In this document: positions 56,143-63,613 of the stretch, piece after piece
Numbering within the stretch: position 1 is the stretch's first letter
Layout of the letters: each line of letters begins with the position of its first letter
Source of the DNA: Cirrosporium novae-zelandiae
Lineage: Eukaryota
Length of the DNA: 64,000 bases
Direction of reading: 5' to 3'
Assembly: GCA_026023565.1 (NCBI GenBank)
Contig: JAPETS010000021.1
Location: forward strand, 434,001 to 498,000
Notes under the pieces: generated by a model
What the model was told of the DNA's origin: nothing
Database searches by the model: none
Seen by the model: only the letters and a program-made list of their open reading frames with translations
Made by a program: the position numbers and the translations under genes

Positions 56143-58945
56143 TTTGGGGCAAACGAGTGAAGAATGGAATGAATTACCTGCGGTCGTTCGAGGCAACACA
56201 CAACGCAGTAATCAAGTGAGAAATGTGGGAATGTGGGGAGGCAATGTTTATATGAAATTTATCAATTAAGCTCAGGCGTCACACAAGAATGTAGTCTGGA
56301 CTAGCAGATGAGTGGCTGGAGGGGGAATTGGCAGAACTGGCCATCAGAGACACCCGTTTACGAATATGGACGTCTTGCATTAGTATGGATAAGATGATTA
56401 ACGAATGAGAAAAAACATATGCAAGCCTTGACCCAAGGCTATGGTGACGGACCATCATCCAGAAAGCCGATTAGCAGTAAGGACGAACCAAGCAGAGGAT
56501 TGATTAGATGTAATGCCAGATAGATAATTATGCTGCTAGATCTCAGAGGATCTTCGTAGCCACTGACCACTAGATGCTCAAACCCTTGACGGCAAGTTCG
56601 TAAATGCTTGCTCCGATCAAGAGATGAGAGAGGTCGATTAATGATCACATGCATAAAGGAACCAAATGCCAGCTTGAATGATATGGATAGACGTTGATGG
56701 TTCATATGCAAATGCCAGGCTGCGCTTGACTTGGGATTTGACCATGGCAGCCATGGCAGACCTAGACAGATGCCAGGGTAACATTGGTTCGTATTGTTTG
56801 TTGCAAAGGGGAGGATGGATTTGAACTTGGAGCCAGGGCTTGGAATTTCTGGCTTGGAGAGGGGAAGAGTTGCAGGTTCATCTGCAATAGCCATCAGGTC
56901 CTTGATGATAAATTCCCCTGCATGCCAAGTACGAACCAGATAGCTCAAATCAGAAAATGAGAAGACGCCTTTTATTATTAACAGACATGATTTTGAACAC
57001 TTGACCAACATTTCATCGTCTATTTTGTCTGGTACTTTTTTTATTTGCATCAAATATAATCTGCCGTTTATTGATCAGCACCGGTTAGGTGGTTCCCCAG
57101 GGAAGATGTGAGCGAACGCCTACCTATTATTAAGATAATACGAGTTGTCTAGTTACTTTTGCTTGACAGAAAACAGACAATCACTAATTAAGATGGGAAA
57201 TAATGAACAAAAAGAGGATAAATATGGATCCAAGAGGACGGAACTGGAGCTGGTATCGGTCGGTGTTTATGATATTTCCTATTTCCTATTCTATTTCCCG
57301 AGACATTAGATGATAAACAATTAATAGATTAAGGGACCAGATATCATTTGTAGGACATATATAGCAGCAGGAACAGAAAAGAGAAAGTTTTTTTTTTTGT
57401 CACAGATTGAGATCATGGGAGCTTTTTGAAGGTTGATGATTTGGGAAGTTTGGAGCTTGGAGGGGTTTTTTTGGTTCCCTCGGTTTTTTTTTTTTCATAT
57501 TTAATAATGAATTTTGGTTGATTGGTGATTGGATTGAAGAATTAAATTATCCGAAACCGAGTTTTAATCAACTGATCTGATTTCTTATGATTGGATGCAT
57601 AAATGCGGGAAGCGGCGTCAAGCCACTTCTTGATTTTCACAACTACTCCAACACCTTCTAACAGCTCTAAGACCTCCAAAAAACACCTCTTAACATCTCC
57701 AGCTTACCAACAGCACGTCACTTTCAGAGTTCATCCATGGTCAATACTTTCCTTATTCTAGACTAACTGGATTTCTTCCCTGTCAAAATTCAAAGCAAGA
57801 CATTTCAACCCAAAAAGACAATTCCAAACGATGTGTAATTATGTATGTAATGTATCTAATTTGTGTAATATGTGTATGTAGTGTAATGTGTAATCGAGAA
57901 CTAACCACCTTGGAGAAGTTACATGCAAATAATTAAAGATATGATAATTAATAAAGGATGAAATAAATGAATAGATGAATAAGAAAAGGAGAGTTGAGCC
58001 GAGAGAGAAAGAGAAATTAAGGATGCGGGATATTATCCAATGCATCTAATTACAATGTAGGTACAAGTACAGTAACGAAGTACCTGGAGGTACAGTACTC
58101 GAGTAATTAGTTTACCAATCTTTGTATCCGTAAATTTTATCCAACCGACACCAAGTGTGCCACCAGACATGTTCAACAAGTCCAGTCCAACAATCCAACA
58201 ACAATTCAATGAATTCAACCCCGACAACAAGCAAAACCTGCCATTTTTCCTTTTCTCCTTTTCTCCTTTTCTCCATTCCATTTCCCCTTTTTTTTTTTCT
58301 TTCGTCTGATTAACTATCTTCTAGAAAATACAAAAAAAATAGCAGGAATGATTATTGTAAATTCAATAAATCTTCTTTTGGGAGAAGAGAGAGAGTTGTA
58401 ATCGCCAAGGTTATTGTTACACCCACCCCCTGGCCATAAATCGATCCGAATTGCCAACGCATACACTCGATCCCAGCCACCCATATCAGCAGCAAATCGA
58501 GGCAAAAAAAAAATCGTCTCTTTCTTCCCAGGAAAAAAAAAAACCAATACTCTTTCCCCTGGTAAAGCCTTGTTTGGTTTTCTTGAGGCCTAATCTTCGC
58601 CTCAATGCATCATTCAATTACCTGACCTCTTCAATTGACCGCCTAGATCTTGCCTGGTTGTCGTCCACAGCTAAATTTCCCATTCAAACCCAAGCAGAAA
58701 AAGCTGTCGGTGACGTGGGAACTTCGGCCCCGGCCTTTTTGTCCTGCTGCTCTAATTCAAGTCAAGTCAAGCAACAAAAAAAACATAATGAGCTTCATCT
58801 GCTCTAGTATATCCATAGAACTGCAACCACAACCACAACCAACTACCCTCAATTTTCACTTCTATTTTCCAACACCGTAGCGACATTCAAATAATTAGTC
58901 TTCCTATTCAACTACCTCATTTGGTGCCTTAGAGTTGATCTTGGT

Positions 58946-58990
58946 CCCCCCCCCCCCTCCCCCCGTAAGGGAGAGAGAGAGAGAGAGAGA
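58946..58990. repeat. Poly-C tracts followed by (GA)10
   Basis: C12-T-C6, then GTAAGG, then (GA)10, upstream of the 59.5-kb gene. Confidence 0.85.
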
Positions 58991-59505
58991 AAAGAGGACG
59001 AGATAGCAACAATACAACTCTATAAGCTCCAACTTCAGCAACACTACTCACCTTTAACTCGAGCAATATCCATTTCAGATGAGACTAGACGCGATCCACT
59101 TTCGATTTTCACACTTTCTCAAAGTGCCACCATATCATGATATCCTCAGTCTGATGTGGTTCGTGCTTATTGATATTTCAATTGGTGGTTCAATCGTGTA
59201 AGTCGCTTCCCCAGCCATCTCGTACATGAACATTGGTCCAGCCTCACGATTATTTTTTCCCAACCTCTCAAATGTCACAATTAGCTCCTAATTATTCTTT
59301 TTACCAATATTCTGGAAACCCTCCGAACTTACATAATTTTTTCCCTGCCAGACCTGATATCCATTGCTCCAAATTCCGCATTCCTCGACAACTTTTGCCG
59401 GCCGATTCAACCGAAGCTTCACTTTTCGCGTCTTTTCAATTGGAAAACTTATAGAACGCGCTCGCATTGTCGTCTCGACTACAATCTTCCCCTCCATCTT
59501 ACAAG

Positions 59506-62055
59506 CTGTCTCAAGAAGGCCAGGCAGTCTTTGACGAGTCTCACGAAATTTACGACCCTTTTACGCAGCCTTTACGACAACGCCAGCAGCAGCAACAGTT
59601 TTCTCAGATACATACCCCTCCGCGTCCATCAAGCTCTTCCGGTGGTAGCATTCGTACACTCAGAAGAACACCTGAAGACAGTAACTTGCGTAGTCGACGA
59701 GCGGCCTCTTTGGATATTGAACCACCTGTCCCTGAGCTTCCAGATCCTCTTCAACCCCGTCCACGGACACCGCGACAACCTCCGAGTGAAGGCAACTCCA
59801 CTACAAGAGAAGCTCCAACCCATAGTTTTGGCCTTGAGTCATATTGGCCGGAGAGGTCTCTACGCGTCTCAGAGCGCACTGCTTCCGCCATTCTGTTCGC
59901 GCTCGAAGAAGCTATAAGAACGCCCTTTCAATTTACACCCGTTGTAGAAGAGGAAAACGCCTCAATGTCAGAGCTCGGCGGAGGGACACCATCATCAGCT
60001 ACTGGTGGAAATGGGCGTGCTCAAAATGGAGGGGTTCGATCGGCTTCTGGACCGGTGCCAGTGTCCCAATATCCTTCCGACCGAGTCCGTACACCTACCG
60101 ATATCATGAGACAACGACGAGACCGGGAAGCAAGGAAAAAAGCGGAACAGGAAGCAAGGCAGCGTGAACAAGAAGAAGAGGAACGACGAAGACATGAAGA
60201 GAGGAGAGCGGCTGCTGCTGGCGTTGGAGGAGATGTAAGTGGTGTGTCCGAAGGGGCCCCACAACGAAGGCCAAGTGCTCCAACTCGGAGAACTGAACCT
60301 GATACTGGCTATATATCAGAGCAAACCAGGAAGCCGACTGAACGAGTGAGCAGTGGCAATCCTCCCAGAGTTAATGTACCAACTGGCGCTCCACAACCTC
60401 TTAATGTCCCCGGCGCGGCTGGTCGCTCGCAGGATCCCAATCCACAGCTACGTGCTGCGGGTGGGAATAATGGAAATGGTGCTGCAGTTCCACCAGCATC
60501 CAGTCGTACACGTGGTACGACACTGTCACAAGGACAGCCAAGACCAGTTTCACAACCGCCTCGAGCGACGTCAGAATCATATAGACCCCAACAAGGTCGA
60601 TCATCGCAAGCAAGGCAGCCATCAGGTGGACGCTCTGCATCACAAGCGCAACCTCCTTTGTCTTCGACCGCTCCCCAAACCCAGGCAAATCAGAATGGCC
60701 ATCCTGTCGGGACATCCAGACAACGCGATCCAACGCAGTCCGCTTTTCCTCATGCTTTTGAACGATGGGAGCAACTCTCTTCGCATTGGGAAGGCCTTAC
60801 TTCCTACTGGATCAGACGGCTGGAGCAGAACGGGGATGAACTGAGCAGAGATCCTTTAAGCCAGCAGTTGTCGCGTCAGATTACTGACCTTTCGGCAGCT
60901 GGGGCCAATCTGTTTCATGCAGTGGTCGAGCTTCAAAGACTTCGAGCTTCATCTGAGCGCAAGTTTCAAAGGTGGTTCTTTGAGACACGATCCGAGCAAG
61001 AACGAGCCCAAGAGATGTTGGCCGAGAAAGAAAACGCGCTGCGAACTGAGCGGCAGGCTCATGCTGATGTAGCCAATACCATATCTAAATTGGAAGCGGA
61101 AAAGAAACAGGCTGAACAAAGACTTAAAGAAATGGGAAGGGAACTGCAGATCTCGAAAGAGGAAGCGAGGAGAGCTTGGGAAGAGCTTGGACGAAGGGAA
61201 CAGGAAGAGAGAGATCGAACACTGTCGCTACGAAATGGGGAACCAACGCTCGTTGGGGGCGTTCAAGTAGTGCCCATGATGCAAGGTGTTCCGGCCCGGC
61301 AAGGGAGCGTCGCCCGACCTCCCACTCGAGAGGGTCCGTATGCTGGTGGCCCAAGTCCTACTACAATGGGCGGACAACCAGCGAGGCCTGTAGAGATAGA
61401 AAGAGAGATATCGCCAACAAACACAGATCCATTCGTAGAGGAACAGGAGAGTCAACCTCCGCTTCATCAGGAGCCACCCGAATCTCCTGCGACTCCAACT
61501 CAGCAAATGCCCGGAGCCATGGAAGAACAAACGGAGACTACTTCCACGTCGTCAACCCCAGTTGCATATTTCTCTCAAGCACCACCACAACCGGCTTCAA
61601 CTGCTCCTTTTTATCAGCAAGAAAGTACTGCTCTTGAGGAGCCTCGAAGTGTATCTGAAGCTGAAGAACGGTCGTATGTTCCTTCGTCTGTGGGTGGAAG
61701 TGAAGATGATTACGAATATGACGAGGGTGAACAACCGCGACGATATGAGCAACCAGTAGGATCTGAAAATAGCGACGAATATGATGTATCAGAACAACAG
61801 GAACGGGAAAAGGAATACAGCCAACGATATGGGGGAATAAGCGGGGTCGAATATGGGTCGGGATCTACCAGCACTACCTCGAGTGGGCCATTTGGCTACG
61901 GCATGTCTGTTCCAGATTACAGTGGATCCGATTATGGAATGGGTACAGGATGGGAAGCGGTTCCCAGACATCATCATCCCACCCGATTAAGTGATGTCCT
62001 CGAGGAAGATGAGAGGAGCCGGACGAGCCCTAGTCGTGCAAGTTCAGCGAGGTAG
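59506..62055 (+). CDS. Conserved fungal coiled-coil/disordered protein; first AUG at 59965, probable upstream near-cognate start (CTG 59506)
   Basis: Stop-free frame 59455-62055. Motifs FPHAFERWEQLSSHWEGLTSYWIRRL, DLSAAGANLFHAVVELQRLRASSERKFQRWF, ELQISKEEARRAWEELGRREQEER and HHHPTRLSDVLEEDE. The start position is inferred. Confidence 0.8.
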   Translation: MSQEGQAVFDESHEIYDPFTQPLRQRQQQQQFSQIHTPPRPSSSSGGSIRTLRRTPEDSNLRSRRAASLDIEPPVPELPDPLQPRPRTPRQPPSEGNSTTREAPTHSFGLESYWPERSLRVSERTASAILFALEEAIRTPFQFTPVVEEENASMSELGGGTPSSATGGNGRAQNGGVRSASGPVPVSQYPSDRVRTPTDIMRQRRDREARKKAEQEARQREQEEEERRRHEERRAAAAGVGGDVSGVSEGAPQRRPSAPTRRTEPDTGYISEQTRKPTERVSSGNPPRVNVPTGAPQPLNVPGAAGRSQDPNPQLRAAGGNNGNGAAVPPASSRTRGTTLSQGQPRPVSQPPRATSESYRPQQGRSSQARQPSGGRSASQAQPPLSSTAPQTQANQNGHPVGTSRQRDPTQSAFPHAFERWEQLSSHWEGLTSYWIRRLEQNGDELSRDPLSQQLSRQITDLSAAGANLFHAVVELQRLRASSERKFQRWFFETRSEQERAQEMLAEKENALRTERQAHADVANTISKLEAEKKQAEQRLKEMGRELQISKEEARRAWEELGRREQEERDRTLSLRNGEPTLVGGVQVVPMMQGVPARQGSVARPPTREGPYAGGPSPTTMGGQPARPVEIEREISPTNTDPFVEEQESQPPLHQEPPESPATPTQQMPGAMEEQTETTSTSSTPVAYFSQAPPQPASTAPFYQQESTALEEPRSVSEAEERSYVPSSVGGSEDDYEYDEGEQPRRYEQPVGSENSDEYDVSEQQEREKEYSQRYGGISGVEYGSGSTSTTSSGPFGYGMSVPDYSGSDYGMGTGWEAVPRHHHPTRLSDVLEEDERSRTSPSRASSAR

Positions 62056-62542: not shown

Positions 62543-63613
62543 ATGGCTCACTGCTTGGGGAGTTCCACATCTGTGGTATATAATATCGCCAAGCTGTCTC
62601 TTCGGAATCCGGGACGGAATGTTCTCCTACCAACCAGATATTTAACCCAAGCTCCTCGAGCTTTCAGCACATCGAGATGCCAGTCAAACTTCCCTTACAA
62701 TTGCAGATTGTCAACTCTTCCAGAGTCATGCCGCTCAAAATGTCTGAGTTCGAAGCTCTCGACCTCAAAGAGGTCATTCAGCTCCACTCCAACCAAGAAA
62801 TACAAGACAATACAGGAGGCTCGCTCGCGCTACCGCTCCGGTGTATGGTAAATCCCTTCTCTGTACTCCTGCAACTTACACTAACGATTATGTGCCTTAG
62901 CCATTCTCGGTGACCTCTGCTCTGGTCTTCATCGTAGTCGGCGCCGGTTTGATTGTATATTTCCGCTTTGAAAAAGCGCGGATGGAAAGGGAACACATCG
63001 CAAATATGAACAAAGGTGTCGGGAAGCCCAAAGTTGGTGGTCCGTTCGAGCTTGTAGATCAAGAAGGTCGTCCTTTCACCCACGAAAATCTGAAGGGGAA
63101 ATACGCACTCATCTATTTCGGCTTTACACACTGCCCTGATATATGCCCAGAGGAACTAGATAAAATGGCCGAAATGATCGATATGGTGCGGAATAAATGT
63201 GGAAACGTTATGCTTCCCATTTTTATTACATGTGATCCGGCCAGAGATACACCAGAAGTTATAAAAGAATATCTCATAGAATTTCATCCCAAGTTGATTG
63301 GGCTGACAGGGACGTGGCAACAGATCAAAGACGTCTGCAAGGCTTATAGGGTATACTTTAGTACACCCTCAAACGTGAAAGCCGGCGAGGATTACTTGGT
63401 GGATCATAGTATTTATTTCTACTTCATGGGTATGCAGCCTGGACATTTCCTTATATCGATCCTCTAACCCTCAGTCTATAAGCTAACGAAATTCTTCTAG
63501 ATCCTGATGGAGATTTTGTCGAGGCCGTCGGGAGACAGCACACGGCCGAACGTGGGGCACAAATCATGATTGATCATATCAAGGATTGGCGTGGAAAACT
63601 TAGGAAGGACTGA
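62543..63613 (+). CDS. SCO1: Cytochrome c oxidase copper chaperone Sco1
   Basis: Mitochondrial presequence, one TM helix, VGGPFELVD, YFGFTHCPDICPEEL (CxxxC), DPARD and DYLVDHSIYFYFM|DPDGDFVEA. Introns 62842-62900 and 63429-63500. Confidence 0.97.

Follow-up and report, generated by a model that had tools for sequence, protein, structure and literature searches.

In EIF4G2/DAP5, the main product depends wholly on a GUG start codon, and the yeast genes GRS1 (UUG) and ALA1 (ACG) each produce a long and a short isoform, the downstream AUG being reached by leaky scanning and the extensions acting as mitochondrial presequences. In the Pezizomycotina, the GCN4 homologue cpc-1 possesses an N-terminal extension of ~180 amino acids (aa) with conserved near-cognate start codons CUG, AUU and ACG, as passages of Ivanov et al. 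(2017, mBio, PMC5487733) describe; the same passages give a ratio of nonsynonymous to synonymous substitution rates (dN/dS) of 0.285, with the starts backed by toeprinting and ribosome profiling. The present analysis concerns a gene with a comparable arrangement in a 64,000-nucleotide (nt) window of Cirrosporium novae-zelandiae (assembly GCA_026023565.1, contig JAPETS010000021.1, positions 434,001–498,000 of the forward strand; all positions below are window-relative). The long protein of this gene is probably initiated at near-cognate CUG and UUG codons, with leaky scanning to the AUG at 59965 giving a 696-aa form, a reading to which a probability of roughly 0.8 is assigned from comparison of sequences. 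As computed from the orthologous loci, the extension is under purifying selection and free of in-frame AUG, and at the nucleotide level its NTG codons (N, any base) are conserved together with their contexts and frame.

The open frame of the gene spans 59455–62055 on the + strand and consists, from stop to stop, of 866 codons and a TAG stop. It is bounded upstream by an in-frame TAG at 59452–59454 (+), and its first in-frame ATG, at 59965, is codon 171 (Met171), preceded by 170 open codons. The ATGs of the + strand around this site lie at 59079, 59137, 59154, 59226 and 59272, followed by the one at 59965. The intervening zone without ATG in any of the three frames (59275–59964, +) probably comprises a short 5′ leader and the whole N-terminal extension. 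A preliminary description of the locus had reported the frame open from 59455 with its first in-frame ATG at 59965, the absence of ATG from all + frames between 59275 and 59964, and a CTG at 59506 in the context TACAAG-CTG-TCT; the frame and ATG listings bear out each of these points. Its estimate of roughly ten ATGs expected by chance is of the right order, since base composition predicts 8.2 in these 690 nt, a first-order Markov model 4.1, and the window-wide density of 19.2 per kilobase (kb) about 13. No ATG gap in the 64-kb window exceeds this one of 693 nt, the runner-up measuring 518 nt, and ATG and GGG are the only trinucleotides absent from the zone, in which CAT occurs 11 times. For the window alone the gap is moderately improbable, with a Poisson probability of zero ATGs between ~0.017 and 0.0003 and ~90 such windows per 64 kb. 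It is the comparative data, rather than this gap alone, that make the ATG desert convincing.

Two features go beyond the preliminary description: the ATG at 59272 shares the frame of the gene, and an in-frame TTG is located at 59467, 39 nt upstream of the CTG at 59506. The TTG (site A, 59467–59469, +) lies four codons after the bounding TAG in the context CTCGCA-TTG-TCG, with C at −4 and G at −3, and is a candidate upstream near-cognate start for a protein of 862 aa. The CTG (site B, 59506–59508, +), with A at −3, is the probable main near-cognate start, giving 849 aa.

A protein database search with the translated frame returned 1604 relatives at E ≤ 0.001, the best 120 of which were listed. 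A scan of metagenome contigs yielded 80 orthologous DNA loci (L001–L080), of which 73 cover Met171; five of these run off the contig, leaving 68 with complete upstream sequence. Once duplicates with identical upstream sequence were removed, 52 loci remained, the window among them, and these grouped into 32 clusters at 80% amino-acid identity. Poly(A) or poly(T) ends, sought among the short metagenome contigs as signs of an mRNA origin, were not found.

In all 68 complete loci, the frame upstream of Met171 is open, extending for 107–215 codons, and ATGs in any frame number 0–2 per locus. The preliminary description held that orthologues with a normal ATG at this position would contradict it; none of the 68 has an ATG there or anywhere else in the open upstream frame. 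The translations share a common series of motifs, ..(A/E)-(L/V)-S-R-x6-D-E-P-Y-E-I-Y-E..QRQQ..SSSSGS..LRRTP..YWPxR..ISxRTASAILxALEEAIRxPFxFTPDLxEENAS-M, which are kept at the amino-acid level while their codons vary. In the window, the extension from site B to Met171 (59509–59964, +) carries FDExxEIYD, QRQQ, SSSGS..LRRTP and YWPxRxxxxSxRTASAILxALEEAIRxPFxFTP. By the Nei-Gojobori method, 15 of 17 locus pairs give finite dN/dS values for this segment, ranging from 0.09 to 0.40, and two pairs are saturated; between sites A and B, and upstream of A, the ratio scatters around 1 and is noisy, with 5–23 codons per pair. The extension is thus under purifying selection as a protein, and the conserved open frame with dN/dS below 1 that the preliminary description had named as support is present. 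In one lineage (L032, L038, L055, L065), an intron lies inside the extension, after an LQLRQ motif; because it shifts the frame in three of these four loci, the upstream part was sought in another frame there.

The structure prediction is consistent with a protein-coding extension. In an AlphaFold2 model built from a 40-sequence alignment (A1), which is poor overall (mean predicted local distance difference test score, pLDDT, of 51) and is used for helix location only, confident helices are predicted at residues 140–155, 214–254 and 434–594. The first of these (ERTASAILFALEEAIR, 59872–59919, +) lies within the extension and is its only confidently folded element, its 10-residue blocks having mean pLDDT values of 84 and 75. 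These observations bear on the reading in which only the AUG at 59965 is used, and the upstream sequence is either an untranslated leader conserved for some other reason or decaying former coding sequence. That codon is indeed the first AUG, and 19 of the best 120 database models start there. Against this stand the dN/dS of 0.09–0.40 over ~150 codons, the frame open in every complete locus, the motifs conserved with varying codons and the confidently predicted helix. The untranslated leader is rejected because of the dN/dS values, and exclusive use of this AUG is highly improbable.

Depletion of AUG extends across the family and affects all frames, as the preliminary description had anticipated. 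Between site A and Met171, the 52 loci contain 23 ATGs against 141.9 expected from a Markov model. CAT occurs 382 times over the same interval, and downstream coding sequence of matched length contains 294 ATGs. In a synonymous resampling of 31 cluster representatives, with amino acids held fixed and codons drawn from each gene's own usage, the extension shows 14 out-of-frame ATGs where 93.4 are expected, and the downstream control shows 110 where 79.2 are expected. Met codons account for 0 of 4,916 codons in the extension and 274 of 20,970 downstream in the same representatives. The avoidance is also visible in single motifs: in DEPYEIYE, the Tyr or His codons before GA are TAC or CAC in 16 of 16 aligned sequences, avoiding TATGA and CATGA. 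None of the 15 residual ATGs is in frame, and each has a pyrimidine at −3; 11 of them open frames of 4–76 codons that end before Met171, and the other four open frames of 7–19 codons that stop 13 nt past it. Leaky scanning predicts that out-of-frame AUGs are avoided at synonymous sites, and an ordinary AUG-started exon would have no need of such avoidance. In the 300 nt upstream of site A, the 52 loci contain 66 ATGs against 151 expected, and the nearest upstream ATG is 195 nt from site A in the window and 79–684 nt away in the other loci. In three Eurotiales-like clusters (L004, L018, L021), an Asn-Ala pair encoded AAT-GCN creates an out-of-frame ATG 5 nt before Met171, with a pyrimidine at −3 and a frame of seven codons.

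Both near-cognate sites are conserved in codon and in context. At site A, the 32 clusters carry TTG (24), CTG (3), GTG (1), CTC (3) or TCG (1), an NTG codon in 28, with a purine at −3 in 29 and C at −4 in 29. At site B, they carry CTG (17), GTG (10), TTG (4) or GTT (1), an NTG codon in 31, with a purine at −3 in 31 and a variable base at −4; the conserved near-cognate codon that the preliminary description looked for is therefore found in the column of CTG 59506. No cluster lacks NTG at both sites, and in 27 both carry it. Site B sits a fixed nine residues before the conserved D-E-x-Y-E motif, and amino-acid conservation begins there, dN/dS dropping at this point from ~1 to the values given above. 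In a control set of 12 conserved Leu columns lying downstream in these genes (588 codons), all six Leu codons occur, with CTG and TTG together making up 232 codons (39%; 0.24–0.72 per column) and TTG 14%. At site B, by comparison, all 21 Leu clusters have CTG or TTG and 10 of the 11 Val clusters have GTG; at p = 0.39 the binomial probability of 21 out of 21 is ~3e-9 if the clusters are treated as independent, which they are only roughly. The exchange between Leu and Val proceeds only via NTG codons at both columns. The codon after site B is mostly TCT and that after site A mostly TCN or ACN, placing after both sites a Ser or Thr, which eukaryotic proteins usually have in second position.

That site A lies in frame cannot be put down to the way the proteins were aligned, because the same position also emerges from a frame-blind motif search and from stop counts by frame. 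The pattern C-R-N-N-NTG-[TA]-C (R, purine) has 18 matches upstream of site B, each of which shares the frame of B. Of the NTG codons upstream of B that have a purine at −3, 40 are in frame versus 11 and 9 in the other two frames, and stops between A and B interrupt the main frame in one of 32 clusters versus 13 and 8 for the other frames. The sites are 30–60 nt apart, and 31 of 32 clusters fall within 30–48 nt, about the length of one ribosome. Use of a single non-AUG codon, either UUG 59467 with the CUG as a conserved residue or CUG 59506 with the UUG as a leader element, is possible, though on the doubtful side. Site B alone would fit the protein-level constraint that starts at B and the stronger codons found there, CUG and GUG; site A alone would fit the A–B frame being open in 31 of 32 clusters with A always in frame, and a cluster in which B is often CTA or TTA and A is GTG or TTG. 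The two sites are, however, each under their own codon- and context-level constraint, and each is lost only in clusters that retain the other.

In the favoured reading, near-cognate initiation with leaky scanning, the first ~150–165 residues, with the conserved helix and the short motifs, would be encoded upstream of the first AUG of the mRNA, and the full-length protein would be made solely by near-cognate initiation. Site B is taken as the main start because amino-acid constraint begins there and its codons are the stronger ones. Site A probably contributes as a second start, since it is in frame 13 codons upstream, has the conserved C(−4)/R(−3) context, and is kept where B has decayed. The near-cognate codons would capture only a fraction of the scanning 43S complexes. 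The remainder would traverse ~460–500 nt from which selection has removed AUG in every frame, and would initiate at Met171 to give the form without the extension. Initiation at the near-cognate codons, the dominance of one of the two, and the production and importance of a short form are inferences.

The first AUG, that of Met171 (59965–59967, +; GCCTCA-ATG-TCA, T at −3), is the probable start of the 696-aa short isoform, to which it is the AUG desert that points. Met171 is present in all 73 loci covering the position and is nearly invariant in the aligned proteins; its −3 base in the 32 clusters is T in 18, C in 10, G in three and A in one. The short form may be functional. Alternatively, the desert and the in-frame first AUG could serve to keep leaked ribosomes in frame, avoiding premature termination and mRNA decay. 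A more speculative role, which we regard as a long shot, is that the conserved tandem of a weak UUG followed by a stronger CUG or GUG, always in frame, acts as a sensor of start-codon stringency. Complexes paused at the CUG would queue others over the UUG, the ratio of 862-, 849- and 696-aa forms would shift with the activity of eukaryotic initiation factors 1 and 5 (eIF1/eIF5) or with stress, and the helix-bearing long form would be a translational read-out without upstream open reading frames (uORFs) or RNA structure.

Upstream of site A, conservation is lost. An ATG-started frame of 60 codons (59272–59454, +), beginning MSQLAPNYS and ending ENL, lies in the same frame as the gene and is closed by the TAG at 59452. 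It is not conserved, and in all 32 clusters in-frame stops interrupt the sequence upstream of site A at varying places; this frame either precedes the transcription start or forms a uORF. The geometry invites a start at ATG 59272 with readthrough of the TAG, or with the TAG as an assembly error or recent nonsense mutation: one stop separates this ATG from the gene, and the ATG-free zone starts directly after it. The 60 codons have no counterpart in the orthologues, no in-frame ATG occurs in their open frames, and dN/dS upstream of A is ~1. As for an assembly error, a search of sequencing runs placed this DNA in one DNA run and in no RNA run; one contig of that DNA run matches every base of 59001–60300, an agreement that is not independent because the run is probably the source of the assembly. 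Readthrough is rejected because nothing upstream of site A is conserved, and a start at ATG 59272 in any of these forms is barely credible. Reading by hand, the only GTs in 59272–59452 that could open a canonical intron rescuing this ATG are at 59273 and 59430, neither a good donor, and from GT 59430 none of the AGs checked in 59504–59527 restores the frame.

The in-frame stops upstream of site A lie 3–51 codons away across loci L001–L080. They fall within 10 codons of it in 18 of 32 clusters, versus three and three in the other frames, an enrichment that may reflect selection fixing the N-terminus or the trace of an intron end. A TTGCG/ATTGCGCC motif, a ATTGCGCC- or TTGCGATCGC-like word, occurs upstream of site A in 15 of 32 clusters and is absent from the window; in L032, L040, L049, L051, L056 and others, the word lies 18–83 nt upstream of site A. 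The motif is not clearly specific, since TTGCG also appears in 14 of 29 control windows placed 600 nt upstream. In the window, ~17 C/T bases followed by a (GA)n tract occupy 58948–58995, ~470 nt upstream of site A in a region classed as repeat (58900–59000), and may be a low-complexity element of the promoter region.

Alternatively, splicing could join a 5′ exon with an ordinary AUG, in frame, to an acceptor that directly precedes A or B, which would make the extension ordinary AUG-initiated coding sequence. The identical database record P0001 (870 aa; a hypothetical protein from a Cirrosporium novae-zelandiae metagenome-assembled genome) is annotated in this way. It consists of MISS plus the open frame, its first exon (59137–59148, +) running from ATG 59137 to a GTCTGA donor at 59149 and joined to 59455 over a 306-nt intron (59149–59454). 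The TAG at 59452–59454 could indeed act as a YAG acceptor (Y, pyrimidine), and the stops enriched just upstream of site A, often TAG or TGA-G, can look like an intron end. The annotated intron is atypical of this genome, with no CTAAC-type branch site before 59454, unlike the two short introns of the neighbouring gene, both of which have one. No counterpart of the MISS exon was found in the other loci, several clusters lack any AG between the stop and site A (e.g. L022), and no polypyrimidine-AG pattern is conserved upstream of site A. Splicing would also leave unexplained the depletion of out-of-frame ATGs at synonymous sites (14 versus 93 expected) and the two Leu/Val columns limited to NTG with conserved −3 and −4 bases. 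The other obvious donors, GTTCGT (59159) and GTAAGT (59198), produce exons of 80 and 119 nt from ATG 59079; both end in phase 2 and cannot be joined to the frame at 59455, as the preliminary description had stated. The MISS exon is judged to be a construct of the gene predictor, and an in-frame AUG exon is unlikely.

The public models of the family disagree among themselves, as would be expected if the gene lacks an AUG start. The annotated N-termini of close relatives are mutually unrelated, as in the Ajellomycetaceae, where unrelated sequences precede the 'LSPAPP' of site B. Fifteen of the best 120 database proteins begin exactly at site B, and three of these are written with V, which implies that a gene caller allowing GTG picked that codon.

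Several observations weigh against near-cognate initiation with leaky scanning, or narrow what can be drawn from the comparison. For the gene itself, the public model provides an AUG in a 12-nt upstream exon. The NCBI models P0002 and P0013, from relatives, begin with an M upstream of site A, perhaps in continuous sequence, and the Penicillium models P0105 and P0119 begin with one six residues before site B, so real AUG starts are possible in some lineages; the 83%-identical locus L001 has no ATG at the start of P0002, whose first 13 residues fail to align with it. Site A is usually UUG, a weak start codon, its NTG is lost in four of 32 clusters, and dN/dS between A and B is ~1. In the L056/L057 cluster, an in-frame TAG separates the TTG of site A from the CTG of site B, and the protein start must therefore be site B or something later. 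The context of Met171 is weak, 28 of 32 clusters having a pyrimidine at −3, and does not resemble that of a start tuned for efficiency. RNAalifold, applied to 16 sequences after the start codons, gave 0 pairs and no conserved RNA structure. The clusters share descent, and binomial arguments overstate their independence; dS is saturated in many pairs, and many of the orthologous loci stem from few metagenome projects.

The gene product belongs to an uncharacterised Ascomycota protein family that is, by prediction, mostly disordered, with a long helical region at residues 434–594. All of the best 120 relatives come from fungi, those with names being lichen-forming or other Pezizomycotina; among these best 120 of 1604, the named matches include lichen fungi, Eurotiales and Onygenales, and Aspergillus, Penicillium and Paecilomyces relatives are represented as well. 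A Pfam scan of the protein found no family above the cut-off, the only match being a sub-threshold one to Peptidase_M61 (E 0.17), and a precomputed Pfam domain is lacking in 119 of the 120 listed relatives. A search of the ESM Atlas returned only 'hypothetical protein' or unnamed Ascomycota clusters, with a best score of 0.86. The downstream neighbour (62543–63613, +) contains a CPDICP motif and two short introns, each with a CTAAC branch site, and resembles an SCO1/SenC-type copper chaperone. Among the database relatives, P0064 (1358 aa) contains PF02630, pointing to a gene model fused across the same pair of neighbours.

If near-cognate initiation holds, non-AUG codons are the only route to the complete conserved form of a protein family found across the filamentous ascomycetes. 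The public models would then be systematically wrong, some being truncated at Met171 with the loss of ~150 conserved residues and others being provided with invented first exons. The locus would offer an unusually clean case for studying start-codon stringency in fungi: it combines a pair of conserved near-cognate codons with a ~500-nt desert in which synonymous sites avoid AUG, and it lacks uORFs and conserved structure. For gene finders, the corresponding rule would be to extend a conserved AUG-free open frame that precedes the first AUG up to the conserved NTG codon. Near-cognate extensions of the cpc-1 type are known; what appears to be new here is a conserved case in an unrelated, unnamed fungal gene family. 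A full-text literature search in a limited collection turned up neither a paper on this family nor a genome-wide survey of such extensions in filamentous fungi.

As in EIF4G2/DAP5, GRS1 and ALA1, a conserved functional part would be made only from a near-cognate codon. Unlike the presequences of yeast GRS1 and ALA1, the extension here is acidic or polar and predicted to be disordered with one helix, and does not resemble a targeting signal. The logic of detection is that of the conserved non-AUG N-terminal extensions of human genes (Ivanov et al. 2011, NAR, PMC3105428), where an open conserved frame precedes the first AUG and has a conserved CUG-, GUG- or UUG-type codon at its 5′ limit; those are vertebrate genes, and the present one is fungal. 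The likeness to cpc-1, as portrayed in the passages of Ivanov et al. (2017; PMC5487733), includes the same subphylum, an extension of ~150–180 aa without an AUG start and under purifying selection, several conserved near-cognate codons in favourable context, and inconsistent automated annotations. In cpc-1, however, the extension overlaps AUG-started uORFs, and its near-cognate starts are proposed to bypass uORF2, whereas here the AUG desert is complete; the codons are CUG, AUU and ACG there and UUG and CUG/GUG here; and the cpc-1 starts are backed by toeprints and profiling (PMC5487733, same passages), those proposed here by sequence comparison. The cpc-1/GCN4 family is further characterized by a bZIP domain and two conserved uORFs, whereas here no Pfam family lies above the cut-off and no conserved uORFs are seen in the upstream ATG scans. 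In conclusion, the gene resembles cpc-1 in its probable mode of initiation but lies outside the cpc-1/GCN4 family.

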